A DNA stretch of 64,000 bases from the NCBI GenBank assembly GCA_050273025.1, contig CP158635.1, forward strand, positions 13,702,001 to 13,766,000. The letters run 5' to 3'. Both the position numbers and the translations under genes were made by a program. Source of the DNA: Cenococcum geophilum (taxonomy: Eukaryota). Below the pieces are notes generated by a model. It did no database searches. It was not told the origin of the DNA and saw only the letters and a program-made list of their open reading frames with translations. Below are positions 4,031-48,799 of the stretch, piece after piece; the stretch's first letter is position 1; each line of letters opens with the position of its first letter.

Positions 4031-4115
4031 GGCCGTCGAAATCGGACTCTGCACCTGTACGTGGTGACGGCTACGAACCTGGTCTTCGAAGTTCAGATCC
4101 AGAGCCAACGCAGAG
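4031..4115 (+). ncRNA. HDV-like self-cleaving ribozyme (predicted)
   Basis: P1 GGCCGUC(4031-37)/GACGGCU(4066-72) with G.U at the cleavage site. P2 CUCUGC(4047-52)/GCAGAG(4110-15). P3 ACC/GGU, L3 UGUACGU, P1.1 GU(4057-58)/AC(4073-74), P4 4079-4102. J4/2 GCCAAC with putative catalytic C4105. Confidence 0.85.
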
Positions 4116-5056
4116 ACGTCGCACAGCGTGCGGACAGGACCTGGTGGTGGTTGTGGGCGTTAAGGGCGGTGGTGAAAAATTTTCGGATGGTGAGATCTTG
4201 AAGAACACTACTGTTGGCTCTCTACATACGACGACTACTACGCTGTTCTCCTATCCAGGGCACCTGTACGATCCAACATGGATGCACAGTATTCGATAAC
4301 ATCCCCCGACCCCCAGTAGAAAGCATCGACGACCTCACATCGACGAACAAACAAACGCGAACGAACGAACGAACGAGCAAATATACGGCCCCTCCTAACC
4401 CCCAGGGCGATCGCCCGCGGAGCATGTGGTCACTCGCCGTACTGCCGTAATACTACTGAAACTGGCAGCCGGATAACCCCGTACGGTTTTCCTTATCTCC
4501 TCTCGACGGAGTGGTGCCCTTAGAGAGGGCCTAGTGACTGGGGCCTAGGCACAAAAGATACTCAGATACACACACACACATCCCGCTTTCGTTTTCAGTA
4601 TTAGGATGGTAGAACGGATGAATCCCCCTTACGCCTTCGATAGGCCTTAGGGGGGGGGGGAGGCATGGCGTATATGGCAATAGCAATGGTCAACAAGAGA
4701 TGGCATATAGGGGGTGGTCAAGATACGGGACACAACTATAAGTATACGGCAATCGAACGGCAAGGCCTAGCTAGGACGTAGTAAACCCTAGCTTTGGATG
4801 AGCTAGAGAAGGAAGCAGTGGTTCCCAAGGAGTTCAAAACATCCAAGGAGGAGGACGTAGCTGTGGGCCCGCAGGGCCGCTGCTACGTGCAGGCATGGCA
4901 ATTCGGGGTTTTTCATCCTACTGAGGTGGCTCATAGGGTTTTTCCTCCCCCCCAATAGCAAGGGGTTTTTCCTGTCAATATTACTTTCCCCTTGTGTACG
5001 GAGTAGTCTGCGTGGGCCTAGATAGGATCCGTATCAGACGTTAATTAAAGAATCTA
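4031..5056 (+). mobile_element. non-autonomous non-LTR retroposon (SINE/SIDE-like), copy 1: 5' HDV-like ribozyme and LINE-like 3' tail
   Basis: 15-bp TSD CTATTTAAATTACTT at 4016-4030 and 5057-5071. Second copy at 15161-16175. Its 3' end GGAGTAGTCTGCGTGGGCC...GGATCC...GACGTTAA resembles the LINE 3' ends at ~46190-46240. Confidence 0.9.
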
Positions 5057-7298
5057 CTATTTAAATTACTTTTATTATATTTACTATTTAGGGGTTGTTC
5101 TTATATTTATGCTCTATTAATTTATTAATTTCTAATTTATTTCTATTAAGCTCCATATTTAAAAATATAGGGTGTAGTTTCTTAAAACTTTTAGGGGGTA
5201 GTAGAATTTATAATTAATTTATGATCCGTTTATTGGAGGCATTTATATATAAGTTCTATAATTGTTATATTAATAAGTTAGGCTTCTAATTAAGTTTGCT
5301 AGGTCGGTATATAATCTTAAAGTTAAATTATAAAAGGTATTTAGCCTAATAAATTTAGCGCTATATTAATTGCTTTATAGTTATAAAGTTCTATAGGTTT
5401 TTATAGTCCGTTAATACGTATATTAAAAATAGCAATCCTTTAAGTTCTAAATGCTATTATTTAAAGTATCTAATAATTATAAGCAGTTCCTTATTATATA
5501 TCTTATAGTTTAATTTAGTAGGGGTAAGTTTCCGGGAAAGAAAGGCTCCTAGGCGTAGCCCGCTGTTCTTATTATATTATAATAACACTCCTCCTAGTAT
5601 ATAATTAGATAAGTTTATTTTAACAATATATCTAAGGCCTAGATTAAAGTAGGTAAGAATTAAAGTAGTTATAAAATAATATTTTAGGTTATTAAAAAGC
5701 TTATTTATATTTAGTAGTCTACTTAAATCTTATATTCTTTCTTATTAAGTTTAATAATGGCTAAACAATTTTTAAGAAGTAATTAATAAATTAATAGTAG
5801 AAATTTGCAAATTCTAAAAATCCTTAGATGTTTTATATACTACTAGGACTTTCTTAGTTTATAATTATAGCAATTTTCTTAAAGTCTATTTTAATTCTAT
5901 TATAGAATATAATTAGGCCTAAGTATATAACTTTAGATATATAAAACTTATATTTCTTAATATCGCATTATAAGCCTGCGTTTTATAGGCATTTAAAGAC
6001 TATTTAGATATACTTCTAATACTTAAAAAGTAAAGATAAATAAATTAAGATATTATTAATATACGCAGTAATAAATATATTAAGGAATTTATAAAGTAAA
6101 TTATTAATATATTACTAAAACGTACTAGGACTATTATTTACACTAAATAGTATTACTAGGTATTTAAAAAGTCCCTATTATATACGGAAAGCTATATACT
6201 TCTTATCTCCTTTACAAATATAGATTTAATTAAAGATAGTAACTACGTTAAGCTTTATAAAGTATTATGCTTTTACTAAGTAGCTAAGCGTTTCTTAAAG
6301 CAAAGGAATTAAATATTAGTTTTAAATTATAATTATATTTAAGGCTTAATAATTAATACAGAACCTTATGCCTCCTTTAGGTTTCTTAATAAATAGTATA
6401 AATAAGGTAAATAGTAATTAACTAGGGTAAATAAATCCTTTCTTTAGGTGCTCTTTAAGGTATTATTGTATTATAAGCAGCTTTTCTTATAATATACCGT
6501 ATAATGGGCTAAACTTTAGTATTATACTAGGTTTAAGTTCTATTTTAAAATTATACTTAGCTTAATATAGGGGTAGTTAGTCTATAAATCGTTTCTTAAA
6601 TATATTAATTAGATTATAATATTTTTTAGGTATAAGAGGTTAGGGGTTAATATATTACTTTAGTTCTAACGCCTTCTTAATATTTTTTAGTGTTATAGTA
6701 AAGATTTTATAGTCTCGTTTTCTTATTAATAAATAAAAGGGTGCGGCCTATACTATATAAATTTTAAAAGGTTTTAATATATTATCTTCGCATTCTTTAC
6801 TATAATTAATAGTTATAACTTTATTATATTAGTTTAAGGTTTATAGTAAGGGCAATTTATATTATATTAAATTTAAATAGTTATATATATATTTATAAGG
6901 CAAGTGGTATTTTAAGTAATAACTTCGGTAATAGGTTATATAAAATTTTATTATTTCTTTAACCTAGCTAATTAAAGGGTTATATTATTTTAGCTATCCG
7001 TATCTAAGTATTACTTTATAATACTTTAAGGGTGTTATAAATAGGGAAATGTATTTAAGGTATTTGCCTATTTATATCTTTATAAGAGCGTAGTATATTA
7101 GTTTGCTATATATTAAAGGCTTACTATTAAAGCCTTATAGGCCTTAGGGCTTATTAAGTTTCTTTAAATTTAAGCGTTAAGTTTTTATGTAGTTTGTATT
7201 AATAAAGCCTATACTAGTAGCTCCGCTATTTATAAGAATTTATACTTCCTTCTATTTTCTAAGTATTTAAATTTCGCTAAGTATATTAAGGAAGTTAT

Positions 7299-7570
7299 CT
7301 GCCATATTCTGCTATATCCCGCCAAGTTTTACCAAATTCTGCTATATTCCGCCAAGTCCTACTAAATCCTACTAAGTTCTGCTAGGACCATAACCTAAAC
7401 CCTATTCCGCCCTATATATATATTAACTAAGCAACTAAGTTAACAATATATACCCTTTCTTCCCGTTTTCCTACCTTCTCTCTTTACGCAATGTCTTAAC
7501 CTCCTTATATAGTTTATATATATAGCTTAATAATATCTACCTTGCTATATATTACTGTCGCTTATATTTA
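7299..7570 (+). mobile_element. terminal fragment of an unclassified element with ~10-bp tandem subterminal repeats
   Basis: About eight repeats of the CTGCCATATT/CCGCCAAGTT type at 7299-7385 abruptly truncate G1b. They are followed by a TATA-like tract and a short degenerate ORF start. No partner end was found. Confidence 0.4.
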
Positions 7571-25433: not shown

Positions 25434-28400
25434 TATTTATTATAAAGATAATATTTGCCCTTAGCTAGTTAATTTATTTTAAAGGAAAATACCCCTAATT
25501 AATATAAGTATACTAAGGTAAAGTATTTTATTAAATATATATAGCTTAAAAAAATAGTTAAATAGCTAATTGTATTATATTTAGTCAATTTAATAAATAA
25601 AAATTATACTTAAAACCATTTTTTTGTAATAAAGCTTAATTATATTTCTTTAATAGCTATATAAGCCATTATATAGTTAAGTTTTAATAAAATATACAAT
25701 ATACAATATATAGCTCCTTTTTAGCTACTTTATTTAATATAATAACCTTTAAATCTATTTTAAATATCCTCTATTAAGGTAAAATATTTTAAGTAAATTA
25801 TAAAGTATATATATCTTAGTAATATAGCTCTAATTAAGAAGTACTATTTTATTAAGTATTACTATAAGACCTAAAAAAGGCCCTATAATAAAAATAACCA
25901 ATTTTAGGCAGTATATCTTTAGTATTTATTTATAAAGTCTATATAAAGGCTTTAAATATTTTTAAGTAAAAAAGAGAGCTTTAATAAAAGGGTTAAGCTT
26001 TAAAAAAGCTAGTAGTAATTAATTTAATAATATAATGACCCTAAAGAAGCCGTATAATATATATTATACAGCTTAAGGTCTTTATAATAAGTATATACTA
26101 AATTAAAAGACTTAGTTACTTTTATAAAAAATAAGTTAATAATTTTAGAGGGTTATTATTAAGGCAGCATATATAGGCGCTTAAATATATAGCTTATAAT
26201 TACAACTTAAAGACCTTAAAAGCCTAAAATTATATAAATAAATAACGGTAGATCTAAATATAATACTAAAATATATAGTTTTAATTAATAAAGCTATAGT
26301 AGATATAAAGGGAAAAAAAGGCCAAAATAAGGGTAAAGGGGCTAAAATTAAAGCTTTAAAATACGCTAGATTAAACGCCCAAAGCTAATATACTAAATGG
26401 TATATAAGGGCAATTAATTAATTAAATTTTGTTAAGCGTAAATAGCTTCTAAAGTGGTGTGGCCGATTTGGTAGAGTAATTAAGTTTAGGAGGTAATAGA
26501 GTTCTAGGGGTCCGAGCTTAGTTATAACGCCGTTAATAGTAGCTACTACTTTAGGAATAAGTGGGGATACTAGTATATAGGATACTAACTTGCAGCTTAT
26601 TACGGTAGGTTAATTATAGGAAATAGTTAATTAATTAATAGATAATAATTAAATACTTAAAGAATGAATTAATGGAATTGGAGCAATAAAGGTTAAGTTA
26701 CTATTAGTTAAGCGATTATTAGGGGAGAAGTTAAAGCTTAAAGGGTTTTTAGTATAAATACGTTTTAAGGTAATATAAGAGGGTGTAAAACCCACTATAC
26801 TAATAGACTAAGTGGTCTATGCAGGATTATTCCTAATAGGAAGAGCACTTAAGTGGTTTAAATTTTACTTTACTAAGATATAAGAGTAAGGGAGTGCGAC
26901 TACTAACCTAGAAGTTAAGTATATATTCTTAAGTTAGAATAGGTTTGTAGACCGACTTATATAGATATTTAGAGACTTAAAAGCAATAACTATAGTAGAA
27001 AGAAGACTCTAAAATATAGTATAATAAACTTTAGCAATTAAGTATATAATATAGTTTTATACACTAGCTATATAAGTTAAGTGGGACAATAAGGCGCTTA
27101 TAGTATAGTATAAATAAGGACTTAAAGAGAAAGTCTAGAATATAATTATCTTAATAGAAGATATGGATATACTTAGGGATCTTATAGATTAAGTAATTAA
27201 GATTAATAATAGAGTTTATTAAAGAGAACAAACTAAAAAGGGATAAGATAGAGTTATATAGTTATATAAGGCGTAAAGTACGCAACGATATAGTTAGAAC
27301 TAGAAACTATAGTATAGCGTAGAGCTAATAGACCTAAGCGGTACTAAAGAATTTAAAACGTTAGGAAATTTTTTACTAGCATTTTATTTTACTTTTTTGC
27401 TATTTTAGCATTTTCTAGCATTTAGTAGCATTTCTAGCATTTAGTAGCATTTAGTAGCTAAATGCGGCATTTATAATTAAGTATTAGCATTTAGCTGCGA
27501 AATACGGCATTTATAACTAAGTACTAGCATTTAGCCGCTAAATGCGGCATTTATTATTAAGTCTTAGCATTTAGCTACTAAGTGCTAACTATAAGATTAC
27601 TAAGCATATATAAAAGTATAATTTTTATAATTTTTATATTTTATATAAATTTAATTAATATTAGTAAGCATGCATAAAAGTATAATTTTTATAAAATTAA
27701 TATATTTTATATTTTATATATACTTTATTAATATTAGTAAGTACATATAAGACTAACTGGAGCTCTTACTACACCCGGCCTAAAAAGACTAAAACTAACT
27801 AAAAAGAACCCTAAAAAACACCTAGAGAATCCCCCTAAGATATATACATTATAGGGGAGGCATACGTCAACCGACGGTGGCTCGCACTTACGCGTAACCG
27901 CCAGATCTACGCCTAATAATGGCCCTCTATAATAAAGACGGGCGAATACTACACTATAAAGCGGAAACACCTCTATTAAGAAGGCATCTAATAAAATATA
28001 AAGCCTATTAAACGCGTCTAGTATCTAAAATTATAGGGGAGTAACTATTAGCTATAACAAACTAATATAGCTAGTAAAATGGCTCCGCCAGTTTAGCGAA
28101 CCTTAGGCGCCCCTTTAGTAACCCCTTAATTAGATCCTCTAACGGCTAAGTAAAATTAAAAATAAATAAAACTCCCTCTTACCGGCGAACCGCATTTAGG
28201 CCGCTATAGCCGCGCTTCTATAGTATAGGGAACTTACCCCCCTTAAGATAATAACCGGGTATATAATTATAATATAACTAAATATAGAAAAAGTAAAGGG
28301 GCTTAGGGGATAATTAGAAATAGAAGTCTTTATAGAGATTTATAAAGAGGTTTATAATATAGTTATAGTTTAACACCTTAGGAGCGGAGATATTAGAGTT

Positions 28401-30287
28401 ACCCTAAAGGACTAATAGGTAAAGGAATAAGCTATAAGGGTAGGGGATAGGCTAGAAGAATGTATTGGCATAAAAGTGCTCTGTAAAGACTACCTAGTTA
28501 AAGTCCTAGCGGTTTCTATAAGCCTTAGGGTAGAAAAGGAACGCTAGGCGGGTAATACAGCAACTATATAGAAGATGGTAAAATATATAAAACGCTTTAT
28601 ACTAGGCCTTGAGATTACCTAAATCTAATAGCTTTAATAGGAAAATATAAACTAAGCAAATAATAAGAATAATAAGAGGACACGAGGGTTACTAGAGACT
28701 CGCTAGAGAGACGCCGGTCAAACGCATAGCTCCCTTATTATTAGTATATATACACTAAAAATACAAAAACTCCTTATCTAAAAAGGAATAATTATAAATA
28801 GCCTTATATATAACGTAAGGCTTTATAACTACAGACTACGCCTAGAATAATGCTACCGCTATATATAATAGGGATATACCTAATCTACATGCGCAGTATA
28901 GGTGTGCTACGGCTACTATATAGGCCCCCACGATATAAGATACTGCTTAAATTAAGACTAAATAAAATGTGTAAACTACCACTAAAGCATATATAAGGCG
29001 TAGGAGAGAGAAGACTATATTAAATATAGGAGGCGGAAGGTAAGGGCTTAACAGCTACGGGAATAACTATACGCTAGGTTATATAAATAGAAATAATAGG
29101 TAATAAGCTAGGGGGACGTAGGTGCCTTTCTAGCGTTTCCTACCTTTAATACTAGGGGGCTAGGCTAGCTATCCCAAGCCTTAACGGGCTAGAAGCGGCG
29201 CTATGTAATATTACTAGACTATATAGGGATATAAGGGAGAGGATGCCCTATAGGAAGACCCCTATAGACAGCTATAGTAAGCTTAAAACTAGGATAATTA
29301 AGAATTAGATTTAATATGGCAAATATATTATTTATAGCCGACCTATTAAGGGTATATAGCTAGCTAGTAAGAATAAGGGAGGAACTGGAGATAATAATAG
29401 ATTTAAATATAAAAGCGCTAGTAGGAATATAAAACACGGGAATAAAAAGCTCTATATAAAATAAGTAGTAACTAGGGTATAGATATAAAAGACTAAAGTT
29501 CTAAATATCCTAAAGAAAGTAAAAATAGAAAAAGTAAGAAATAAAGAAGAGGCGAAAAACTCTTGCCGGGGGTCCGCTACCTATTTATTATATAGTATAA
29601 CTATAGTAATACAAACTACCGTCTTATAAGGCCTTTACTAGACAGTCTAAACCTAAAGAAACACTATATTCTTACTATATAAGAGCCGTACTATAATACC
29701 TATATATAATTAATATACTACCCCTAAGGATTTTAGCTTCTATATAAACTAAATATAATAGAACTTTGTAGCAGGAACTACGGTAGGCTTGTTATTAGGC
29801 TAAGTATATAGGTAATGCAAGTATAGAAGTCAACAATGTAATAATAACTAGCAGAGTGGTTGCCTAATAGATTAACTCTAATTGTATTCTAAGAATTATT
29901 ATAAGGAAGGAACTATCTAGGTAGGGACTAAGGGTCCTTAAATACATAACCGTACTCCTATAAAATCCTTCTTATATATAATATATGTGTGCTCTATCTA
30001 CTCTATTACGGATTACGTAGATCCTATAAATTATATAAATTATATTATATAACCTTAGTTACTATTCCTCGTCATATAGCTCTACTGGCTCCATTTTAGA
30101 CTATACCTAAATTAACTAACTAGCTTCTTCTAACTCTTCTCTAAGTAGTTATAACATTATACTTAAAGCGTCCGTAACACTATCTCCCTCCTCTCTATCT
30201 TCGTCCTTAAAGATCCTAAACGTCTTTAAGTCGTTTACTAGAGGTATAATATCCGTCTAATTAATTTAGTTAATATTATTACTTATT

Positions 30288-30890
30288 ATACCTAAAGCAA
30301 TTTCTTCTTCCTTAACTGTTCGTCGTATTCGCACTATTGCTGCGATATTATCTCTTAGTAAGATTATACCATCTTTATATTCTCGCTATTTGGAAGAGGG
30401 ATTAGTTTGTATTGCGTTAGCAAACCTATCTTTATAATAACCGTCCTCTTACTTAGAGTGCACTAAAGCAAATATTCGTTTATTCTATAACGTTTACTTT
30501 GTCTCTAATGCTAAATATATATAACCTATTACTTTTAATAGTCGTCTAGTTCCCTAATTAATTTATTTTAGGGTCTTATATTTAATCTACTACTACGTAG
30601 CTAGATAATAAACTGTCTATTACTTTTACTAAATTGCGCAATTCTTGGGACGCTAAACGAGAGGCTGCTGATGCTTAGTAACGGGCCCTTAAGTCTCGTC
30701 TTATAGCGTCCACTCGGTTAATCCGTCTTAAGAAGGTACGTAAAAAGGTTCGTTCTAAAAAGTAGAAACTTATAGAATAGGGTCTACAGGAACTTAGTAA
30801 TAAAAAAACGGATTCTCTTTTAACTAAGAAGGAAACAGATCCGAGTAGTTTAGTAACTGCTCTTCTTAGGTCCCCCTTAGGTAACTTATT
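30288..30890 (+). pseudogene. antisense accessory gene of G2: Zn2Cys6-like cluster plus coiled coil, one intron (30517-30571)
   Basis: De-RIPped: MPKAISSSSTVRRIRTVAAILSLGEIMPSLCSRCLEEGLVCIALANPS..PSSCSECTKANVRSFCDVHFVSDAE|WSRIRSTATQLDDELS...AADAQQRALESRLAASTRLIRLEKVREKVRSEEQKLVEQGLQEL. One frameshift near 30435. End coordinate approximate. Confidence 0.6.
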
Positions 30891-33800
30891 TTTTAGCGAT
30901 TTTTTCTTATTAATACTACCTAACCTAATTTCTTCTAATACTCCTATACCTTTCCTATAGCATTTTTTAAATTTTCTAGTAGCTTCTAGGTAGTCTTAGT
31001 ATAGCCTATCCACTTTACCTTATACTATGTTTTATCGTCAATATCCTTATAATTAACAATCCTTAAAACTTGCTATTTGTCTTCTTTTTATCCTCTATAC
31101 GTGTCTGCCTTATAGACTGGTAGCTTAATATCCCTATATACTAGTTCTAGCATTACAATATGCTATATAGGGTAGATCTTCATTTTAGCTAGTAGGTTTA
31201 ACTTAAACGTAACCAGTAAAATTCTTTACTTAATTTTAAAAGGTCCTAGTCTAATATGGTCCAACTTCTTACTTAGTCGTCAACTCTTAAAATTTTTGTA
31301 TAGTAGCTACACTTTATCTCCCTCCTTAAGATCTAGTCCCTTAGATCTCTTAGCATTATAGTACCTTTTCATTCTCTGTTATACTATCTTTACTATTTCC
31401 GTAAGGTCTTTATAAAGATTTATTAATATCTCCATTCTTTGTTTAGCTATACTACTCGTTTTCTTCGCTTATTATAGTAATAACAATATCCTTAGCTTAT
31501 ATCTATAATTCGCCTTAAATAGTAATATGCCTATTCCTTCTTAAGGTGTTATATTATATGCAAACTATATAACTGGTAATAATAATACCCAATTATTCTG
31601 TGCGTAATTAATATAGTATCTTAGATACTGCTTTAGTGTCTAATTTAGTCTTTCCGTCTAACTGTCTGTCTGCGGATAATATATAGTAGAAGTTGCTGCT
31701 CTAACTCCTTATTCCGCTAAGAATACTTCCTAAAATACTGCTACGAATCTTAAATCTCTGTCCGATATAATCTTATTTAATGCTCTATGTTTTATAAATA
31801 CTTCCTTAATATAGATTCTAGCGATATCTTCTACTAATATCTCTTCTGTATATGCTATAAAGTATCCCTACTTTGTAAGCTTATCTACTATTACTAAGAT
31901 TGCGTTATAATCTTATCCGGTAATAGGATCTCTTAACTTTAGTAACTTAATAATAAAGTCCTATAATATAACCTCCTATAGTCTTTTAGGTGTTTTAATA
32001 GGTTATAGCCCTCTATACAGCTTATACCTCGTCAGTTTATTTCTTTAGTAATCTAGATATTCTTTTATACCTTTTCGCGCTAGTTCCTAGATTCTATTAA
32101 TAATATACTCCTCTTAAAGTCTTAACACTAAGCCTATGGCTCTGTTATATCCTTAAGTTATTCCCTTATAGAAATCTTCTATAAATTATTCTGCTATGCT
32201 TTTTAGGATATACGTTACTTCTTAATTCTTGTATATATCTATTTACGGATCTTCTAGTTATGCTTCTAGAATTCTTTATACCTAAAAGCTTCCTAGTGTT
32301 TTATAGACCTTACCTAACTCTTCTTAAGTTGCTATAATTTTTGGATAATTATATCTAATTAATCCATCTATATCTTTTCGCAATAAAGCCCCTAATAGCT
32401 TTTTATCGTTCTATAGTTTAGCCTTATAACTTAGAGCATCTACTCGTGTGTTATCTGTACCCTTAGTATATTAAATTTTAAAATAGTATTCTATAAGTAT
32501 CTCTGCCTATCTAACCTATCTTTAGTTAAGCTCCTTTATTATTAGGGATCCTATTAGGTTCTTATAATCCGTTTTAACTATAAATGGTTTTTCTATACCT
32601 TGTAAAAATACTCTCTATTCCTTTAATGCTGTAACTATACCTAATAACTCCTTATTATAGATGTCATAGTTTAACTCTAGTAGTATTATCTTCCAACTAT
32701 AGTATGCCACTAGGTGCTATCTATCTTAATATTTCTGCATAAAGCACGCCCCTAGTATATAGTCCAATATATCTGTTTCTACAACCGTCTCTAGTCCTAG
32801 TTAATAGATTTTTAAAACTAGCTCCTAGGTAAACAACTCTTTAACTTTCTTAAAGAGTTCCTACTATTCCTCTCCCCATGCCTATAGTTCTTCTTTTTTT
32901 GTTAATCGCGTAAATAGCTTAATATTCTTTAACCACTACGCTATAAACCTTCTATAGTAATTGCAAACCCCTAAAAACAATTTTAGCTATATAACGTTCT
33001 CTAGTTTTTACTAATTTACTATAGCCTTAATCTTCTTTAGATCTATACTAAGTTAGCCTAGTTTAATAATAAATCTAATAAAATCTGTCTTCCTAGTAAA
33101 GAACTCGCATTTTTTAATCGCTACTAGCATCCGTTCTTCTTATAGTCTCCTTAAGACCCATTTAACGTATTCCCTGTATTCTTCCTTAGTTATTAAGTAG
33201 ATAATAATATCGTTAAGATATACTATAACAAATTTATCCAAATATTCTTCTAATATATTGTTAATACGCTTCTGGAACGTTGCTGGTGCGTTTATAAGCC
33301 TAAATTGTATAACTAATGGTTTATATAGTCCTTCCTTTAACCTAAAGGCTGCCTTTTACCTATCGCCTTCTTTAATCCTAATCTAATAGTACGCCTATCT
33401 CAGATCTATCTTTATAAAGATTTATGCGTTACCTATCCTATCTTAGATTTTGCTAATTAAGGGTAAAGGATACCTATCCTTCCTAGTAATACTGTTTAAC
33501 TGTCTATAGTTAATATATAGCCTTAGTTTACCATTCTTTTTTAGTATAAATAGTACTAGATAACCTACTAATAACTATAATAGTCTAATGTATCCCTTTT
33601 ATAGGTTTTCCTAGATAAACTCTTTTAATACTTTATTTTCCTCTTTAGTAAGCTTATATATTAGAAAAAACCTTAAACTTATTTCTAGTTCTAATTCTAT
33701 CTTATAGTCCTATACTATATACTCTAATAGCTTCTCGCTCTTTAGTAACCATAGTTTTTTGCTATACTTATAGTATCTCTTTAATATGTAACTTAGTCCT

Positions 33801-34970
33801 TTCTCCGTTTCTTTATACGTTACTCCTACTTAGTACTATACTAATTTAGCTTATTATCGCATCTTATAGCGTTAAGTATCCCTAATATTAACCTAACCTA
33901 TAATCCAATTGATCTTTAGATTATATTCCTATAACTAAGGCATTCCTAATACTGCCTTATTGTTTCCCAATAGTAATATATTAAAAGACATCTTAATTTA
34001 TCTCCCTTTAATAGTTAACTAAATAGGTCCTGTTTTAAGATTAATAATCCCTCCTCTATAGGTTATTAGATCTCCTAAAATTGTCACTAATAGGTAAGGG
34101 TACTCCTTTTTCCTATATAGTAAACCTATCCTTTTAACTGCTGCTAGCGAGATATAGTTCCTTATTACTCCACTATCTATTAATGCCTTAAACTATTAAT
34201 CCTGCCACTTAATTTATAAATTTAGGTATTATCCTTAAATTCCTTTAAGGGTCTAAGGCTCTACTATTAGCTCCCTCTGGTCCTATAGGCCTCTACTTTT
34301 CCTAACTATTAGCTGCTTAATCCTATTTATACTTAGTCCAACTTAAGCTAATACTTAGTTCGCTTTTTATCTTTAATATACCATAAACACGTATTTTCCA
34401 GGCATTTCTACCACTATTATCCGTCTAGGCATTCTTCCGTAAGGAATCTTTCTGGTTAAAGTATTAAGTCGCCTAACTCCTAAACTTCTACTAGATGCTA
34501 GCTATGTATATACTTAGCATTCCTATACTTCTATTCGTCTATTATCTAATACATTCTTATAGGATACTTATAGTGCTTATCTTTTGGTGCTTTATATATA
34601 TTATACGCATCATCTATACATACGATCTATAATAGTGTATAATATACTTAGTGTCTTAGGTTAACTCTTAGCTCGTCTTTATCCTTAAGTTTAAACCTTT
34701 ATTATATTAATCTAAGTGTTATAACTTTATTCGCAGGTACTAAGATACATCTTTTATTTTTCTAGTCCTCTAAGCGCTCCTTTAGATCCTTTAATATTAT
34801 AATTAAGGCCCCTTTAATATAGTTTATGGCCTTTTCTATAATTAGGTAGTCTTAGATAACTTTTTCGTCTAGCTATATATAAAAATCTTCCTACTTATCA
34901 TTATGCCTTTGCCTATACCACTTTTAGTATAGCTACTAAAGTATATACGGCTTATCCATAAGAAAGTATC

Positions 34971-37900
34971 TGTCACGGAACCCCACCGCAGGGGCCTCCA
35001 TAGGAGAGCCCCGTGCTCTCGCGTACACCTCGCGTACAGCTTATATCAGCTACGCGTAGGTATATCACCTCCTTACGCCCTCGACCCTTACGATCGATCG
35101 CGTAACGTCTTATAGACTCCTTAAATACATACGTCTTATAGCCACTGCCCCCGTCCCATGACATTACGTTGCGCCTTTTTACCACCGATATCTAGCCTAC
35201 GACCAATTCTACGTCTTTGTAATACTATAGGCGCTGCTAGAAGCAGCGTGCCTACGAGTTACCTCACTTTATACTTCTAAGGAACCTATAATAGTAAGAC
35301 AATATTCCTTACTAGCCACTATATTAAACCTAAAGAACAATCCAATACCTATACTTAACCTGCGACGCCAATTAATCCCAGGAGAATTTAATTTATTAGC
35401 CCTAGCCTTAATCCCTAAGGAGATGGACACTAATAATGTCTTATCTTTTATTAACTATATAACTACGGACAAGTAAGCGGAAGGGCTATTACCTATTAAA
35501 ATTGAAATATAAGACGCCGAGACGTTTATAAAAATGGTAGCATAAGAACTCGATAAATACTACCGCCTTCTATAGAACTACTACCTAAAGCTTATATAAG
35601 CCAAGATGCGTATTACCTAAAATCACGATATTATCCAAGACCTATAAGCTTATAAGGCGCTCGCTAATAACACGCGTTAAGAAACTAAAGATAACCTCCG
35701 CGTATCTAAACGCGACGTTTAATAGTTAAAGAAGGCTAAGATTGCACTTATTGCTACAGTCACTAAAAGAGAAGGCATAATTAAATACCTATAATCTTAG
35801 CTTAATAAGCATATTTATAATAACGCTAGATACCTCTCTACTATATATAACGCTACTTAAGTCTTTACGCCCCCGGCAACTTTACCTACTTAATACTTAA
35901 TAGAGGGTTAGCGCTAAGCAGCCTTACCTAACGGGAACCCCTACTAAAGCGATAATAAAAGCTATAACAACCGAACCTAAGCTGCTACCGTAGGGTCTAA
36001 TATACGTTACCCTAATCCCCTAGTTTTTTAAGGAGACCGTAAAGAATATAGCCACTAGAAGATATAAATCTGTAAAAAACTAACTTAGAGCGCCTACCTT
36101 TTTCCTACGGAAGATACTAAGATTGGCTATATTATCGGGCGAATAAAGGGTATACTATTTAATAGACTCTTCGCCTAATAGAAGACCAATAGCCCCTAGA
36201 AGTAGCAGTCCTACTAAAAAGTCCTTAATAATCTTAACCTAATATACCGCGACTATAACCTACTGGCTACCAACCGAGCTAAACTATATGCCCTAAAGAT
36301 AAGCCCTACTAAATTATTTAATAAGTTCTATGTTAAATTCTAGGAATATACTAGAGCCCTCGCCCGAGATGATACTAAAGACTAGAAAGATCTCCTTAAA
36401 AAAGTTACTTATCGCCTTAGTTACGCAGCCGCCAGCTATAACTATAATAATGTTTATAATATGGTAGCAGCTATATAGAAGATTGAACAACGACTAAATT
36501 AGATTGCTACTGTAAACCCTTACCTAAAGACCTCCCTATAAAAGCCCTCCGGACCTACTAAACTACTAACGCCTACTACCCTAAGTAATACTACTGGTCC
36601 TAATATTAACCTTTCTATACTAACCTTCCTGTAAAAGCTACTAGATAGAGAACGCGAGCTACTCTAGAAGCTAAAGCGTTACTATAGATATTATTAAGAA
36701 GGCTGTTATAGCTATAGCCTAAACTACCTAATAGCTAGGTTTAGTAGCCGCCGCCTAATACCTAACCTAGTACCTTAAATACCAAATATGTTGCTATGTA
36801 CTACTACTGTATAAGACGAAGACGTAGTAATAGTAGTAGAGTCGGATACGGAAACGGAAAACGCTAAGTCCTAGCCCTAAGTTATAGGTTATAACGCCCT
36901 AATAATAAGGGGATCTATATATTGGCCTGCTTAATAAATAACTTAGTAAAGATAAATAGACGGAAACAGATAGTTTTACCCGTAATAGGAACTACTACTA
37001 AAAAATAATATAAAAGCCGTTCTATAATTAATTATAGAGCTATTAATAAATTTGTAGATATCTAATTTGTGCGTACTTATAACCTACCTACCTTACCCCT
37101 TACTAAAGCCCGCGCCCTATAACTCGCTAATGGTAGTTATACCGCATAGAAGATTACCTATATAGTATAACTCTACCTAGATATAAATGGGCACTAGGAA
37201 GAACTTTAGGCCTATATTATACCACTTGCTAACTACCCTATTATCCTTAGAATAAACTAGCTTGAATAATATAACCCCGCCATTAACTAGAAAAAGAGAG
37301 AAGTAACCTTTAACTCTAAATACTATAAAGAGACCTGCCTAGGATATGGCCTAGCCGCCTCTATCTACTCCCTAGGATACCAACCTAAGGAACCCCTTAT
37401 TACCCTACCTACGACTAACTACCACTATGTAAGTGCTGCGGCCTTTTACCGTATAGCATATAGGAAAGGCTAAACCGTTACCGCAGCCTTCTAATTACAA
37501 CTATATAAGCTTAATAAAGAATAGGACTACGTCCTTTATAGTAATAGGATAGACATAGTTAACCTTTTAGAAAACAATGCCCCCGTAGAACTCTATAGAC
37601 TTTTACCTTTAGACTTTAAGAAGTTTATAAAGCTTAAAAAAGGACTTACCAATAAGGAACTCCGTAAGCTCCTCTCTAAGAGGTACTATAACTTTATTAA
37701 CATATGCTTATAAAAGAGCGTAGATATACTCCCCCTATATTAACCTAATAACTATACTATTAATATTAAATAAGGAAAAACGCTACCCTATAAGAGACCC
37801 TACTTAATATTAAAAGACGAACTTCTAGTTGTTAAAAAATATATTAACGAGCACCTTAATAAAGGGTTTATTCGCCCCAGTATATCCCTAGCAGCCGCCC

Positions 37901-40900
37901 CTATTCTCCTTACTAAGAAGCCAGGAGGAGGTATTTAATTCTGCGTTAACTATAGAAAACTTAACGCTATTACAATTAAGAACTAATACCCCGTACCGCT
38001 TATATATAAGACTCTTAAGCGGCTTAGCTAAGCCAAAATCTATACTAAGCTTAATATTATCGCCGCCTTTAACTACCTCTAAATATAAGAAGGTAATAAA
38101 TAGAAAACCGCATTTATATCGCGCTTTAGCCAACTTAAATATACCGTTATGCCCTTTAGCGTATATAATGGCCCAGGTAACTTCTAAAGCTATATTAATA
38201 ACGCCTTATAGGACTACTTTAACGACTTCTACTCTACGTACCTAGACAATATACTTATTTATAATAATAACCCTTCTAAGTATACTAAGCACGTTTAAAA
38301 GGTCCTACAGCGCCTTAGGGACGCAGGACTTTATATCAATTTAAAGAAGTGCGAATTCTTAGTTATAGAAGTAAAATACCTTAGACTAATTATTACTACT
38401 AAGGGTGTCCGTATAGACCCCAAGAAGGTATATATAATTACTAAATAGTAAACCCCTAACTGCATTAAAGACGTATAAGCTTTCCTTAGTTTTGCTAACT
38501 TCTATTAAAAATTTATATACAACTTCTTGGGTATTATAGCACCACTTATAGTAATAATGTGAATAAAGGGCCTTTTCGCGAAAGGAAGAAAAATATATTT
38601 ACGTTTTATCTGGATACCTAAATACAAGAAGGCGTTCTAAGACCTTAAAGATGCTTTTACTAAAGCACCTATCCTAGCTTACTTTATACTAGGACAATAA
38701 CTCTATCTTAAAACTAACTCCTTAGACCACGTTAACGTAGGCGTCCTTTCCTAGATAGGTGACGACGGTTTTCTCCACCTAGTCGCATTCTATTCGTCTA
38801 AGCTTATATTATAAAAATATAACTATAAGATCTATAATAAAGAACTTTTTACAATTATATAAGCGTTTAAGGAATTCTAACTATAACTCTCCTTAGTAAA
38901 ACCTAACTAGCCAACTAAAGTCCTTACGGATTATTGCAACCTTAAGTACTTTATAACTATAAAATAGCTAAACTAATGCTAAGTACGCTAGAACGAGTTC
39001 CTCTTTAGTTTTAACTTTAAAATTATATATAGGCTAAGAGTATAAGGTACTAAGTCTAATAGCCTAACACGCCGCTTATAAGACCTTCCTTAGTCTAAAG
39101 ATAACCCCTATAACTAGTTCTAATAATAAACAATCCTAAAAGCACGGAATTTAGCCCTAGGTATGCTACCTATAATAAAGCTAACTATACCTTAGCTCCA
39201 CACTATAGAACTAAAATTACCTCCTAAAATTAATAAGCTTATTACTACGGTATATAACACCTCTATTAACCTATTACTGCATTAACTTATTGCCGTAAAG
39301 ACTGCTAGCGCCTATACGCTACCGACTAAACTCTAAAGCTTAGGCTAGATTAATATAGCAGCCTTAGAAGTAAAAGAGAATAGGCTCTATTATAGAGGCC
39401 GTCTATTTATCCCTAACTTAAAAAATCTATAACGGTAACTAATCTAAATGGCCTACAACCTCTAATTAAGCGGCCACTTAGGTAGAGGAGGAACCTATAA
39501 GCTTCTTAGCTAATACTACTTCTGGCCTAAAATAATAGACTTAGTTAAACGCTTTATAGGCGCCTGCTATAGTTATAAGCGCACTAAGGCCTTTAATATA
39601 AAGTATTAAGGACTACTATACCCTCTACTAGTACCTATATAACAATGGGCAGATATCGCTATAGATTTCGTTGTTAACCTACCACCCTATAAGCGATATG
39701 GCCGTACCTATAAGAATATCCTTATAATAATATACCAACTTATAAAAGAGCGCCACTACGTCCCAACTAAAGGCGTAGTCGTTAGCGATATTACTAACGC
39801 CTTCCTTCGCGAAATCTACTAATTATATAGGTTACCTAACTTAATTACGTCTAACTAAGGCATATAGTTTAGCTCTAATATATAGAGACGAATCTGCTAA
39901 CGCCTTAGCATCTCCATTAAGATGTCTATATCCTTCTACTATAAAACTGCTAAGCAACCAGAAAACGCTAATGCTAGCATAAAAGCGTACCTACGACAGG
40001 TAGTCGCCTATAGTTAAGATAACTGGGTGGATTACCTCCTACTAGGTAAATTCGCAGTGAATAACTATATCTTAACTACTACAGGACTTACCCTATTCTT
40101 CGCGAATAAGGGATATTACCCCTAATCTGGTATAGAACCACCAGAACCTATTAATAAAAAACTGCCATATAGAAAACGCCTTAAGATGTTACTTGCTAAC
40201 CAGCATACAGACTATATAAAAAATCTACTCAACTACTACAAGGGAGAAATGGCCTAGGCTTAAGTAAAGTAGGCCTACTTCGCCGACTATTATAAAACGC
40301 CACCACTAGAGATACGTGTTGGCGACTAGGTATAGCTAGATATACGTAATATCTCTACGCAGAGGCCTATCCCTTGCAACGTCAAAATGGGTCCTTAGGT
40401 TATCGATAAGAACCAACCAATTAAATTAGCTAGATTCGGTGCCTGTACTTAGAAATTTATAGGTTTTCCCGTATGGACCACTTACTCTGAGGACCCTGAC
40501 GTTGTAAGGGATAAAGTTACTTAATTATAAGAACCTCGGCCCCTACTTAATTAAACGAGTCATTGATAGGGAGCCGTATACGAGCTAGAGCTCCCGCCTA
40601 CCCTAGCCACCCGCGGGATATAGCCTATATTTCACCTATAGCTACTACACTTTTACTAGCCTAACCCCTTACTAGGGTAGACATAGCCTAAACCCCTACT
40701 AGTACTAATCTGAGATAAGAATAAAGACGAGAACCACGAGGAGTGGACTATTAAACGAATTATTAACTCTAAATACTTTAGCAAAGGTAGAGGACGACGG
40801 CTCTACTACAGAGCTATATACACAGGATTTAATATAAATTAGCCAGAATGGTAACTATAGGAAGACTTTAAAAATGTAAAGGATTTAATTAGCGACTTTT

Positions 40901-41457
40901 ACTACGCGAACCTATAGAAACTGGGCCTAAGTAGAGATTTTATACCTAATCCTTTATAGAAGCCCTTATAAAGTTAAACCGTTATACATTACCACGTAGG
41001 GGCAAATTGCTGTTAAATTGCCGTTAGATTGCAGAAAAGTGCGATTACGTGACTAGAATATTGTTAAGATGTCCAGGATCTTTAACCGGCGGTTAAAGTT
41101 ATCTAATTGGTCGGATTCTTAGATACTAAGCCTTATTATATAATGTTGTTTTAAGCCTTTAGCAATACCCCCCTTTCTTCTTTTCTATACCCTAAGTGTC
41201 CCTTTTATATATATATAGTAACCACAGCGTCGCCAGAGCTCCACCTCTATAGGAGGGGGGGTAGTGTTACGGAACCCTACCATAGGGGCCTCTATAGGAG
41301 AGCCCCGTGCTCTCGCGTATACCTCGCGTATAGCTTATATCAGCTACGCGTAGGTATATCACCTCCTTACGCCCTCGACCCTTACGATCGATCGCGTAAC
41401 GTCTTATAGACTCCTCAAATACATACGTCTTATAGCCACTACCCCCGTCCCGTAACA
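34971..41457 (+). mobile_element. Ty3/Gypsy chromovirus G4, full length, RIP-inactivated
   Basis: 193-bp LTRs 34971-35163 and 41265-41457, TSD GTATC, PPT AGGAGGGGGGG. gag ~35420-36880. RT (FCVDYRKLNA, YLDNILI), RNaseH, integrase, chromodomain ~40740-40930 (EEWTVERIVDS...WQPWEDF). Confidence 0.95.
40371..40510. mobile_element. 140-bp MITE with CCC...GGG termini
   Basis: 14-bp TIR CCCTTGCAACGTCA / TGACGTTGTAAGGG with 2-bp AT TSD. Removing it restores the integrase frame RP-I/M-KLLDYKNLGP. Confidence 0.85.
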
Positions 41458-44400
41458 GTATCTTCTTATTACTGCGTTATAACAGCCCTTAGTATATTAT
41501 TCTTTAAACCTAGTTAAAATCCCTAGATCCTCTTTATGTTCCAATTTAGTAAGCTACTTAGCTCTTAGTATACCTGCTCTAAGCCTATTAGTAATTCTTT
41601 ATACTAGTGCTCTATTCCTTATACGTCCTAATATACTAAATCTCTTATCTAGTTTCTGTTCTTACTATACGATAATTCTTTATCTAAACTCGTCCATAGT
41701 TTCTTTTAGCTTATATCTTGCGCTAAAATCCTTAAAGTCTTCTTGCTTCTTAATCTTAATATTAACTTTTTAATATTTAGGCCGAATACCGCGTTCTTCT
41801 AGTAAGTCCTCTAGGTCTATATATCTGTCTTTTAGTCTAATTGCTATTTATACTATAAATTCTCTAATCTACAAGGAAACTCCTTACTTCTTACTTATAG
41901 GTGTCCTAATTTATACTCCAAACTCTTAATCCCTTAGATTCTTTAATCCTAAGCTTATTTCTAACTTAAGCTTAGCCCCTACCTTAGTTTAACTAGGCTT
42001 ACTTAGTGTTCTTATCTCGTCTTAAGAGTCTTATGCCTGTAGGAAACTTCGTCCTAAGCTCATTTATATATCTTTAAACTAAGCTACCACTCTACTCTAT
42101 TGGTTATCGTCCGTTATAGGTCCTTAAGCTTACCTCATCTTATCTTAAGAATCTTAGTCGTCTCTTATCTCGTCTTAAGAATCTTAAGCCTTTGGCCTTT
42201 TGCCTTTATCAAGTACCGAAGTAATTCGTTATCCTACTTCTCTTACGTCTCGTAAAGCGATAGACATTGTGTCTAGTAAGGTCTTAATCCTAACTAATAT
42301 TCCCTATTCTATAGTAGAATTATCCTCTACCTTTAGTATAACATCTCGGAGGTCCGCGTGCTCCCAGTAAGCCGCCTTTATTACCTCGTCATCCTAAAAT
42401 ATTTCGCCTTCATCAAATTTATCGTCCTTAATATCCGGTCTGCGAACTAGTTTATTAGTTCCTCTATACTCTATAGGTTTTAGCTCCTATAGCTAATAGC
42501 TTACGCCATACTTAGCGTCTTTATAAATTTGGCATGCGCTATTATAACAAAACGCAAAACTTCTAATTAAACACTCTTTCGTTCCTCGTAGTATACTATT
42601 ATCCCTTTATACGTATATATTTCCTACTAGTCTAGTTCCCTTTATTATATAGTAACTCTAACTATCTTTATAATCCCTCGCGAAGTGACCCTATTTCCTA
42701 TAATTTATATAAGCTCCGTCTCTAAACCATTAACTTTATTATAGAGTCCGCCTAAATATCTTCTGCTACTAAGATCCCTAGTTTAGCCTTTACTCCTTAG
42801 TCCTATAATCACTAGATCCTTAACCTCTAGGTTTTTATAGTTTTTTACTCTATCTTTTATAGGCTTCTTTAGTACCACTTAGGTCCATTAGCTCTACGCT
42901 ATACCATATTTTTTAACTTAGCTTTAGTTGTTGCGTACTCTACGCCTTATATAACTATAGAACTCTATTTTAACCTCTCTTAGTTTGTTCCCTTTAGTAA
43001 ATCTAATTGTTGATCTTAATCGCTTAATCTATTAGTTCCCTTAGGGTATCCGCATCTTCTATTGGGATAATTACGTCCTAGACTTTAGCCTTAAGTCCTT
43101 ACTTATACTATACCATAAGCGCCCTATTATTCCATTTAACTTATATAGCTAGCGTCTAAAACTGCGTTATGTACTTAATTGCTAAAGTTCATTGCATAAT
43201 ATTTTAGAGTTTTCTTTCCGCCATAATTGTTAATTCCAGGTCTCTAAACATTTGCGTAAGTCGCTCTATAAACCCTTTCTAGCCTAAGAATATAAATCGC
43301 ATATCTTAGTTAATAGTTGTTATTCCATTCGTTTATGTTTCCGTAAGGTAAAATTTAAACCACTCTAGTGCTCTTCCTAACAGGAATAGTCCTGCGTAGG
43401 CTATTCGATCCATAGGTGTTAGTAGCTTTACCCCTTCTTATAAAACTTTAAAGTATATTTACATAAGAAATCCTTTAAGCTTTAACCTCTCTCCTAAAAA
43501 TCTCTTAATAGATAGTAACTTAACCTTTACTACTCCAATCCCATTAACCCTTTCTTCTAACGCTGCATTATTAGCTATTAACTGGTCAATTACCTCTTAT
43601 AACTGTCCGACCATTACAGGTTACTATAAGTCAGTGTCTACTATACTAGTGTCGTTTCCTAATCTCAAAGTAGTTGCCGCCGTCAATAGCGTTGTAATAG
43701 CTGCTTTTAGTGGCATATTATTCGACTTTTTATATTAATACTATAACCAGGTAGTAATTGTGTAACGGAACCTTATAGCAGGAACTACGGTAGACTCGTT
43801 ATTAGGCTAAGTATATAGGTAATGCAAGTATAGAAGTTAACAACGTAATAACAACTAGTAGAGTGGTTGCCCAATAGATTAACTCTAATTATATTCTAAG
43901 AATCACTATAAGGAAGGAACTATCTAGGTAGGGACTAAGGGTCCTTAAATACACAACCGTACTCCTATAAAATCCTTCTTGTACGTAATATACGTATACT
44001 CTATTTACTTTATTATAGATTACGCAGATCCCACAGATTATACAGATCATATTATATAACCTTAGTTACCATTCCTTATTATATAGCTCTACCGGCTCCA
44101 TTCTGGACCGTGCCTAAATTAACTAACTAGCTTCTTCTAACTCTTCTCTAAGTAGTTATAACATTGTACTTAAAGCGTCCGTAACACTAAAAGCAGCTAT
44201 ATACGTATACTTTATAATTAGTAAGGCTATTAGCTTATCCTTATAGTTATAGCAGGTAGCTAACCTAGATATTATAGTTATAATAATCTAGATATATAGG
44301 GGACCGGTATAAATTATTAATATATATAACCTTAGGGTTAAAGGGGTCCTATAAATAGAGAATATTATATTAGTAATAAGCTTACTAGAAACTAAAGGTA

Positions 44401-46813: not shown

Positions 46814-48799
46814 AAAAGAACCGTCGCTATATTATATTAAATTATCTAAAATAATATAATTTATTTTGTACTAACCGCGTAAACTAAGCAAATACTATTA
46901 AATGCATAGGAAGAGCAACGTTTATTTATTGCTTAAAATAAATAAGATATATAAAATGCGCGAGAAGGGCATTATATATTAATTATGCATTAAGTACTAT
47001 TTGTCTAGATGGCTATAAATGCGCAATTAGCTGTACTATATTGTTAAATACGGCAGTATACCGCACCTAAGTCGATACTATGCGCTACACATTACAATGC
47101 GCGAAATGCGCATTTGGCCGCAATATGCTTCTAAATACTGCAAAAATGCTGGTAAATTTTTTCCTAACGAAGATGGAATAGGAAACTATAGAAATCTAAA
47201 GGTTAAGAATTAAGTAATTATAGAACTAAGGAGTAAAGGCCAAACTAGGGATCTTAGTAGTAGAAGATGTTTATGCGGACTCTATAATATAAAAAATGGC
47301 TTAAAAAAGAAGCTTATATAAACTATAGAAAATAGAGTTGTTTTACTAGAGACTATAGAGGTGATTAAGGAAACTACGTAGTAAAGGGAATAAGACTAGT
47401 AGACGATATATACGTATAGAGGGACGATAATATACTGCGAGGAACTAAAGAGTGTTTAATTAATAGTTTCGCGTTTTGCTATAATAATGTATGCTAAGTA
47501 TAGCGTAAGCTATTAGCTATAAGAGCCTAAGATAAGAGGACTCTGGGGTATAAGAGAGTTAGATAAAAAAAAAATAAGATTAACTCTATAAATTAGATTA
47601 GGACGAAGACAGTATATATAGCCAGTAGTTAGCGGAGAAAGTTCTTACGTACTAGTTTTATTGAGCAATAGAATCCAAGGATTAAGATAATTAAACTATT
47701 AGTAATAATTATAAGAGGAAATAAGCAACTAAGACTCTAATATTAGGATAAGGACCATTAACGAAATTATAAGTAAGACTTAGTAGTAGAATCGAAAAGT
47801 TAATACCTTAGTTAAAAAGTATAAAGGCTTTAACCTATTAGCAAGAAAGAAGCTAGACGAAAGTAACGAAGAGTTTAGGAAAAGAATCTTTATATAGTAA
47901 AAAGAGATACTAAAAGCAACAGACTATTTAGGGGAAAAATTACCTATATAAATGGTTACTAATAGGCCTAAGGCAGGCACGCTAAGAGCTAAATAGCTAA
48001 TTAAACTAAAAGAAGAAGAGGATATAGGAATCTTAACTAGATTTAAGGAATAATATATAAAGGGCTGTTATAATACAGTAATAAGAAGATACTTCCTTAT
48101 GGATAGACCGTATATACTTAAGGAACTGTATTAAAAGTGGTATAGGTAGCGATATAATAATACGTAGGAAGACTTTTATATATAGTTAAACGAACGAGTT
48201 ATTTAAGATTAACTAATTACGGAAAAAGGCATAAATTATATTAAAAGAGTCTTAATTATAATATTAAAAGATTTAGAAGAACGATTAAAGGATTAGAGAA
48301 GGAAATAACGCATCTTAGTACCTGCAAATAAGGTAGTAACATTTAGATTAGTGCGATAAAGGTTTAAACTTAAGGATAAGGATAAGCTAAGAGTTAACCT
48401 AAAGCACCTAGCGCATTATATATTAGTATAGATTATATATATAGATAATATATAGATAATATATATAAGAGTCTAAAAGAAAAGAATTTAAAGTACCCTA
48501 TAAGAATATATTAGGCGCCAGATAAGCAAAAATATAGGAATGCTAAGTATATATATATATGGCATCTAATAGAGGTCTAAAAGTTAAGAGACTTAATATT
48601 TTAATTAAAAAGATTCCTTACGAAAGAATGCTTAAATAGATAATAGTAGTAGGAATGCCTAAAGAATATGTGTCTATAGTATATTAAAAACAAAAAGTAA
48701 ATAAGGTATTAGCTAAAGAACGAGCCAAGTATAATAAAATTAAGTAGTTAATAGTTAGGAAAAGTAGAGGCCTATAGGACTAGAGGGAGCTAGTAGTAG

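Follow-up and report, generated by a model that had tools for sequence, protein, structure and literature searches.

The antisense gene relic and its host element

The stretch analyzed here (the window) comprised 64,000 nucleotides of Cenococcum geophilum (assembly GCA_050273025.1, contig CP158635.1, positions 13,702,001 to 13,766,000 of the forward strand), and it was AT-rich fungal DNA degraded in the manner of repeat-induced point mutation (RIP), with a GC content of 0.21–0.44 in most 1-kb bins. It contained the minus-strand Gypsy element G2, which carried, on the strand opposite to gag-pol, the relic of a two-exon gene located behind the chromodomain and about 110 nt inside the boundary of the 3′ long terminal repeat (LTR). 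Our reading, to which we give a probability of about 0.85, is that this relic is the RIP-inactivated copy of a real, selected, and intron-bearing antisense accessory gene of a chromodomain Ty3/Gypsy family.

G2 had all markers of a chromodomain-bearing Ty3/Gypsy element, namely TG..CA-type LTR ends, target duplication, polypurine tract (PPT), and a pol ending with integrase SH3 and chromodomain (Table 1). The two LTRs were 90.3% identical over 422 nt (self-BLAST) and shared the minus-strand start TGTTACGG, the 3′ LTR copy starting at 30179, and the target duplication TTTAG (minus strand) flanked G2 at 29749–29753 and 44187–44191. Integrase SH3 and chromodomain were found at about 30920–31320 of the minus strand (Pfam SH3_Tf2-1, E 2.1e-6; Chromo, E 0.065, a weak match) and the frames of the relic on the plus strand, in agreement with the initial annotation of this DNA, which had placed an antisense gene between the chromodomain and the 3′ LTR.

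Table 1. Coordinates of G2, of the antisense gene relic, and of the opposite pol frame (window positions unless a locus is named; P numbers, proteins or open reading frames (ORFs) from the metagenome protein database; L numbers, metagenome loci)
Feature	Location	Strand	Basis or content
Gypsy element G2	29754–44186	-	LTR pair and 5-bp target duplication
3′ LTR of G2	29754..30179	-	Self-BLAST pair; ends read directly
5′ LTR of G2	43761..44186	-	Self-BLAST pair; ends read directly
PPT	30180..30206	-	Abuts 3′ LTR on its upstream side; read directly
RIP-degraded pol of G2	30065..34351	-	tblastn of L003 pol ORF residues 1–1419, 59.7% identity; Pfam
Exon 1	30288..30516	+	Start ATA (ATG in relatives), basic N-terminus, six-Cys module; tblastn of P0101 residues 37–101 to 30321–30518
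Six-Cys module	30378..30488	+	C-x2-C-x6-C-x13-C-x2-C-x8-C; intact in homologues
Intron, spliceosomal-type, 55 nt, phase 1	30517..30571	+	Donor ATATAT 30517–30522, CTAAT 30554–30558, acceptor TAG 30569–30571
Exon 2	30572..30960	+	phmmer E 1.7e-13; stop TAG 30958–30960 common to L002 and L003
Pol frames crossing the antisense gene	L003:29–4291; L002:3784–7512; L008:1–3642 and 6917–7411; L001:733–1940	-	Open-frame reading
Window relic of the pol continuation	30065–30920	-	RIP-degraded

Removal of the intron shifted plus frame 1 into plus frame 2 and joined T(30516) to GG(30572–30573), giving a Trp codon. In exon 2, a helix of considerable length was predicted up to about 30815; a Ser/Pro/acidic tail came next, a conserved C-terminal motif preceded the stop, and the last ~40 nt of the exon (the last dozen codons) overlapped the chromodomain end on the opposite strand. 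The coding sequence (CDS) amounted to ~205 codons in the window, and the protein of the relatives had about 200–210 residues. The gene had initially been given the extent 30288..30890; the start at 30288 stood, being ATG or ATA in relatives, while the CDS had to be prolonged by 70 nt to 30960 because the relatives aligned over their full length, through a common C-terminal motif and stop.

The six Cys codons of the window read TAT, TAT, TGT, TAC, TGC, and TAT, i.e., two were intact and four were TAY, just as initially annotated. The window CDS contained eight internal stops (30435, 30438, 30583, 30598, 30676, 30679, 30763, and 30778), and all of them were TAA or TAG, again as annotated. RIP had been offered as the source of these stops. 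Six of them corresponded to CAA, CAG, or TGG in the intact gene of L002, and the other two stood opposite CGG in both L002 and L003 (30435) and opposite AAG and AGG in L002 and L003, respectively (30598). Compared to intact L002, the window displayed 220 differences, of which 133 were C>T or G>A and 26 were reverse transitions, and compared to intact L003, the corresponding numbers were 196, 136, and 19. The sole length difference from most copies was one extra codon at 30821–30823. This transition excess together with the lone extra codon showed that the CDS had been damaged by RIP-type transitions and not by frameshifts. With start codon, donor GT, and four of six cysteines lost and eight stops gained, the window copy is dead and does nothing now, and its practical meaning for the window is therefore small.

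Relatives in metagenomes

The copies compared were metagenome contigs, not sequences of the window's own genome. Relatives were recovered as follows: (i) phmmer with exon 2 (X at stops) against 1.84 billion representatives gave 10 proteins at E ≤ 1e-3, with the best at 1.7e-13; (ii) of 8000 candidates scored with a profile of these proteins, 98 reached E ≤ 1e-3, all from JGI or ENA metagenome data and none with a Pfam domain on record; and (iii) a search with the N-terminal part gave 10 proteins. Forms with an intact Cys region were present in both (ii) and (iii). Longer fused forms (420–2000 aa) yielded no profile match at E ≤ 1, which is weak evidence against fusions. When P0101 was aligned to the window by tblastn, the match (E 3.2e-20) fell into two segments, one before and one after the intron, with a +1 offset between their frames.

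A contig scan found relatives encoded at 75 metagenome loci; a single metagenome set contributed 66 of them, and five other sets supplied the remainder. In these loci, 96 gene copies were recovered by tblastn with P0101; 13 copies not spanning the intron site were dropped, and the remaining 83 plus the window were aligned (84 sequences). The start codon was ATG in 13, ATA in 69, and another codon in 1 of the 83 copies, and the six Cys positions were TGY in 32, 49, 41, 41, 72, and 51 copies, respectively, and TAY in all the rest. The initially reconstructed spacing of the Cys module was present exactly in the intact sequences P0056, P0101, L002, and L003, and all six Cys were found in L001 and L008 too. 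L002 (exons 4034–4274 and 4330–4718) and L003 (258–498 and 554–906) had a GC content of 0.52–0.54, GT...AG introns, and a stop-free spliced ORF. L001 and L008 represented more distant elements close to P0101; the proteins of L001, L008, and P0101 were only ~50% identical to those of L002 and L003 but kept the six Cys, the intron site, and the C-terminal motif. The pol end was located on the other strand within 120 nt of the antisense gene end in 82 of 83 copies.

Tyr codons and TAA/TAG are common in RIPped DNA, and a Cys6 spacing and an intron might thus be readable anywhere by chance. Such a chance pattern would suit the raw plus-strand frames of the window (X at stops), which had no Pfam match at E ≤ 10, and the window's single copy of the region, self-BLAST having detected no second copy of 30183–31313. 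It is refuted by the intact homologues, which matched residue by residue at the E-values given above, and by the restriction of all 83 copies to TGY or TAY at the six positions, leaving it a negligible probability.

Many contigs (L005, L010, L011, L017, L034, L035, L037, L047, L048, L050, and others) contained at least two element copies, in either orientation, within 14 kb, and the element family was seen to accumulate in RIPped repeat nests resembling that of the window.

Intron and proposed antisense transcription

The intron measured 55 nt in 82 of the 84 sequences, 64 nt in the divergent L001, and 127 nt in one further sequence. Of the 83 copies, 26 had G and 57 had A as the first donor base, all 83 had T as the second, and the acceptor was TAG in 79 and TAA in 4. 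A 55-bp intron joining the two parts in frame had been proposed in the initial annotation, and its donor, CTAAT, and acceptor were found as described there, with the GT...AG form in intact L002 and L003.

Metagenome ORFs fell into two junction types (the slash marks the intron site): (i) P0056, P0101, P0003, and P0005 lacked exactly the 55 nt and read AEW/S across the junction, identical to the Trp junction of the window; and (ii) read-through forms, of which P0102 to P0108 entered the intron with Cys or Tyr (T/GT or T/AT) and P0012 and P0006 read out of it (VVG/S). At loci L001 and L008, DAE or DNE was followed by a Cys codon (T/GT) where the frame entered the intron. A spliced antisense RNA would yield just such ORFs as those lacking exactly 55 nt, and splicing is strongly suggested by these junctions. 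P0065 had a junction variant, AE-CTFHVR-S versus the spliced AEW-SRVQ-S, being one residue longer and devoid of the 55-nt intron; it may represent an alternative splice site or a deletion variant.

The spliced-type ORF P0101 extended upstream into the complement of the PPT and the LTR start, and this extension fits a putative transcription start inside the 3′ LTR. RNA run X21 placed 87 reads on the window, mostly on the LTR and 30840–31010, of which none was 99% alike and one was 95–99% alike; these reads give no expression evidence for the window copy. The X21 reads on the LTR (29814–29984 and 30099–30212) were partial, <95% alike, and had long, loose, unrelated ends, and they probably came from other LTR copies or read-through transcripts.

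In the mechanism that we propose, antisense transcription would start in or beside the 3′ LTR and the intron would be removed from the antisense RNA only, so that retrotransposition via the sense genomic RNA would never lose it. The survival of an intron antisense to the genomic RNA had been anticipated on the same logic, and all 83 aligned genomic copies retained the intron.

Selection on the two strands and the open pol frame

The region between chromodomain and 3′ LTR was not a free spacer in intact copies, a point that went beyond the initial annotation. After the chromodomain, the pol ORF of L002 and L003 ran on for ~290 codons, crossing both exons and the intron before it ended ~40 codons inside the LTR. 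The pol frame ended at a like place in the 3′ LTR in L001, L002, and L003; that of L008 was stop-free over its visible parts, and in L001 one indel near 1316–1338 broke the frames of both strands together. The PPT of G2, translated in the pol frame, gave an acidic run that read EDEDEEE in intact copies and was kept in L001, L002, L003, and L008; the acidic tail of the pol frame (EDEDEEE..GVTD) was considered as a conserved protein motif and rejected, as it coincides with the PPT and the first LTR bases.

Because the pol ORF ran open across the antisense gene, both frames were tested for selection. The 55-nt intron changes the phase between the strands: the wobble positions of the two frames coincide in exon 1, and plus position 3 equals minus position 2 in exon 2. 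Comparison of L002 and L003 gave (i) 35 differences in exon 1, distributed 8/2/25 over plus codon positions 1/2/3, of which 28 were synonymous in the plus frame and 19 in the minus frame, and (ii) 62 differences in exon 2, distributed 11/14/37, of which 34 were synonymous in the plus frame and just 12 in the minus frame. Transversion-polymorphic columns among the 84 sequences were distributed 19/8/43 (exon 1) and 33/33/58 (exon 2) over the plus positions. The minus frame had no excess at its own wobble position, either within the intron (5/4/2) or within the tail lying upstream of where the antisense gene starts (9/9/13; 26/26/32; 29/25/30). Since substitutions clustered at the plus-frame wobble with no such excess in the minus frame, the antisense protein is under purifying selection and the pol-continuation sequence is not. 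Conservation of the frame among related elements, named in the initial annotation as a test of the gene, was thus found in the plus-frame wobble excess, in intact L002 and L003, and across lineages ~50% identical.

These distributions also bear on the possibility that only the sense strand matters, in which case the region would extend pol at its C-terminus and the codon composition of this extension would generate the antisense ORF as a by-product. The pol frame was indeed stop-free across the gene into the LTR (wholly in L002 and L003, in the visible parts of L008, and in L001 apart from the indel), and other antisense ORFs of at least 100 aa occurred elsewhere in these elements. Selection for the pol product is, however, at odds with exon 2, where 37 of 62 differences fell on minus position 2, and with the absence of a minus-frame wobble excess in intron and tail; moreover, the ORFs missing exactly 55 nt would frameshift pol, and the six cysteines were invariant. 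We regard a sense-only origin as very improbable.

The openness of the pol frame was examined separately. Upon 5000 synonymous-codon permutations of the antisense CDS, the pol frame was stop-free over both exons in 0.12% (L002) and 0.2% (L003), and the other non-coding frames had about as many stops as the permutations gave. The 71–82 codons separating the antisense start from the pol stop were stop-free in L001, L002, L003, and L008 (base shuffles, P 0.007–0.013 each). The exon tests for L001 and L008 were not significant singly (P 0.18–1.0), and because L002 and L003 are close relatives, the tests did not amount to four independent trials. The openness of the pol frame across the antisense gene exceeds chance and is a real but unexplained feature.

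Features of the predicted protein and weighing of the evidence

In the predicted protein, a basic N-terminus preceded the six-Cys module, after which came a long helix with the almost invariant core RLEKVREKVRSKE, a Ser/Pro/acidic tail, and the conserved C-terminal motif. AlphaFold2 (AF2) modeled residues 98–199 of P0101 as one helix with a predicted local distance difference test (pLDDT) score of 95–99, and the helix was rich in E, A, R, and K. The six cysteines would bind zinc, and the protein may act in the nucleus on the expression or silencing of the element itself.

The module resembled the Zn(2)Cys(6) cluster (PF00172; Gal4 and PPR1) in that its six Cys formed two C-x2-C-x6/8-C halves close to the N-terminus and a long helix came after them; in the alignments, its first half faced the second half of the Pfam profile, and it also aligned to PPR1 (PSCxRCAK). 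The Zn2Cys6 spacing in PROSITE is C-x2-C-x6-C-x(5-12)-C-x2-C-x(6-8)-C. All six Cys were present in the module, and its 13-residue linker was one residue beyond this range; it further differed from Zn(2)Cys(6) in the sub-cut-off score given below, in the scarcity of basic residues from the second to the third Cys, and in the lack of a large regulatory domain in a protein of only ~200 aa. The label "Zn2Cys6-like" therefore describes the spacing fairly but does not assign the protein to that family.

The fungal Cys-rich domain DUF3716 (PF12511) was the second candidate, with a match covering nearly the whole profile (positions 4–59 of 59). In Zymoseptoria tritici, the class II transposon REP9 has two genes with DUF3716 (PMC8232023), and the domain is thus transposon-borne there too; REP9 differs in being a DNA transposon, with no antisense or intron arrangement described in the accessible part of that source. 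The ESM Atlas neighbors, which serve as leads only, were Ascomycota clusters of ~200 aa: the nearest one was named "Zn(2)-C6 fungal-type domain-containing protein" (score 0.92), and a cluster with DUF3716 on 28% of its members had a score of 0.78.

A number of observations tell against a selected, spliced, intron-bearing antisense gene encoding a Zn-cluster-like protein. As for transcription, the contigs behind the four spliced-type ORFs could be RNA or DNA; the 30516>30572 splice joint, which the initial annotation had suggested looking for in RNA data, was not found in the reads and contigs of four runs aligned to the window (for X21, among the 15 joints listed of 29); and one RNA-library contig covered 30404–30618 unspliced. 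As for conservation, many copies are paralogues within one genome, given that 66 of the 75 loci share one metagenome set, and an open frame alone proves nothing because the opposite pol frame is open as well. As for domains, (i) Zn_clus matched six of eight members at E ≤ 10, mainly the first Cys triad against profile positions 18–37, with a best score of 17.0 bits (E 0.0063) below the cut-off of 21 bits and with P0056 at 13.6 bits (E 0.075), and (ii) DUF3716 matched four of eight members (best E 0.0006), L002 exon 1 reaching 18.6 bits (E 0.0017) below the cut-off of 22 bits. As for structure, the Cys module had a pLDDT of ~50–70 within the full-length AF2 prediction, and folding it by itself gave a mean of 48.7; Foldseek with the full-length model gave no match at E ≤ 0.001 (four rows, E > 6); and the best E-value in a profile search of PDB sequences was 0.28. 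The structure prediction that the initial annotation had proposed hence gave no support for a Zn cluster. The heptad a/d occupancy of the helix was reached by 1876 of 2000 shuffles, which did not support the annotated "heptad-rich" helix, and because this periodicity was no better than that of shuffles, the helix may be a single charged helix rather than a dimerizing coiled coil. From the Gal4-type resemblance initially put forward, the spacing and the long predicted helix were supported, and the Zn_clus assignment and the heptad coiled coil were not. What the antisense protein does is pure inference.

Two PDB sequence matches, PPR1 with P0056 (E 0.56) and a C2H2 finger with the profile (E 0.28), were rejected as evidence.

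The sub-threshold likeness to fungal host-type domains, together with the nearest ESM Atlas cluster being an Ascomycota Zn(2)-C6 protein, would also suit a passenger, i.e., a host gene that an ancestor of the family captured, encoding a small protein of the DUF3716-like or Zn-cluster-like type, and that hitch-hikes with no role in the life cycle. Purifying selection nevertheless persisted between element lineages, and gene, intron position, and layout were kept in lineages ~50% identical, although a useless passenger should decay in active copies. A passenger is therefore improbable, if not as strongly disfavored as a sense-only origin, and the antisense accessory gene remains the preferred reading.

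Comparison with known systems

To our knowledge, antisense extra genes were recognized in LTR retrotransposons of plants >20 years ago and in a single fungal element in 2011, and no function is known for any of these genes. The gene described here is a further member of this known kind of retrotransposon accessory gene.

The fungal case is brtn, which was reportedly described by Zhao et al. in 2011 from Boty-like Ty3/Gypsy elements of Botrytis cinerea and Sclerotinia. In Boty-like elements of Botrytis and Sclerotinia, brtn is an antisense gene between pol and 3′ LTR (PMC7264820, PMC8365987, and PMC4227169), and a Monilinia transcript matched both truncated Pol and BRTN (PMC5987419). As far as the accessible parts of these sources go, the likeness concerned the layout: in a fungal chromodomain Gypsy family, most copies carry an extra opposite-strand gene that lies between pol domains and 3′ LTR. 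It is a real possibility, though not one that we favor, that the G2 gene simply belongs to the brtn family and is new only as a further host and a dead copy. The layout reported in the parts seen of PMC7264820 and PMC8365987 is identical to that of G2, and the Monilinia transcript, as excerpted, fits the overlap of pol and antisense gene; set against this, none of the 98 plus 10 relatives had an NCBI source or bore the name brtn.

The plant Ty3/Gypsy elements Grande, RIRE2, Retand, and PvRetro13 carry antisense additional ORFs of unknown function between pol and 3′ LTR (PMC7264820). According to the accessible part of that source, these ORFs agree with the G2-family gene in position and orientation, and they are conserved within a family about as other retrotransposon proteins are. 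They differ in belonging to another kingdom, and the G2-family gene adds a defined Cys6 module and one conserved small intron. We know of no sequence likeness between the plant antisense ORFs and the G2-family gene. A literature search on zinc-linked antisense ORFs in fungal Gypsy elements found no paper.

HBZ of human T-cell leukemia virus type 1 (HTLV-1) is encoded by a spliced antisense mRNA from the 3′ LTR, and it is a small nuclear basic leucine zipper (bZIP) protein with a long helix that exerts feedback on the transcription of the element. The likeness to HBZ is one of mechanism on paper only (antisense, 3′ LTR start, spliced, small protein, and long helix), because HBZ belongs to a human retrovirus, is bZIP and not Cys6, and has no homology to the G2-family protein. 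By this analogy, the G2-family protein might be a feedback regulator.

The open pol frame and the HBZ analogy can be joined into one reading, which we offer as tentative and rather unlikely in its entirety: the antisense gene would be embedded in a ~290-codon stop-free pol continuation with freely evolving amino acids and would encode an HBZ-like, LTR-driven feedback regulator. True two-strand coding would then extend over ~620 nt, with one strand selected for the protein and the other only for openness; a possible reason is that pol translation ending near the LTR would spare the genomic RNA a long untranslated tail marking it for decay. The antisense product might occur across a broad range of Ascomycete Gypsy elements and have kin among the DUF3716 proteins borne by transposons. 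The open pol frame across the antisense gene is the one feature that was not placed in the literature consulted for comparison, and the case raises the concrete question of two-strand coding at the end of pol.

A RIP-ruined relic was in this case correctly read back from its sequence alone. The family offers usable handles, i.e., >100 environmental sequences, at least two intact genomic copies, six invariant cysteines, a near-invariant helix motif, a fixed 55-nt intron, and purifying selection, which make zinc binding, localization, LTR binding, and an effect on transcription or silencing directly testable.

Other features of the window

The gag of G2 was aligned at 34971–34270 and 43659–41413. 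A foreign Gypsy-type element on the plus strand was nested in the gag-pol of G2 (~35000–41400), with pol-like matches at 37648–40395 that were 26–32% identical to L003 pol. A second pol of the same family as G2 was found at 54903–58434 of the plus strand (53–57% identity to L003 pol residues 30–1015); it was cut off before the chromodomain and therefore had no antisense gene. Same-family gag fragments were located at 26515–27357 and 47168–48790. The sole GC-rich island of the RIPped window was 4001–5000 (GC 0.52), in which stop-to-stop frames of 76–91 codons looked non-coding.

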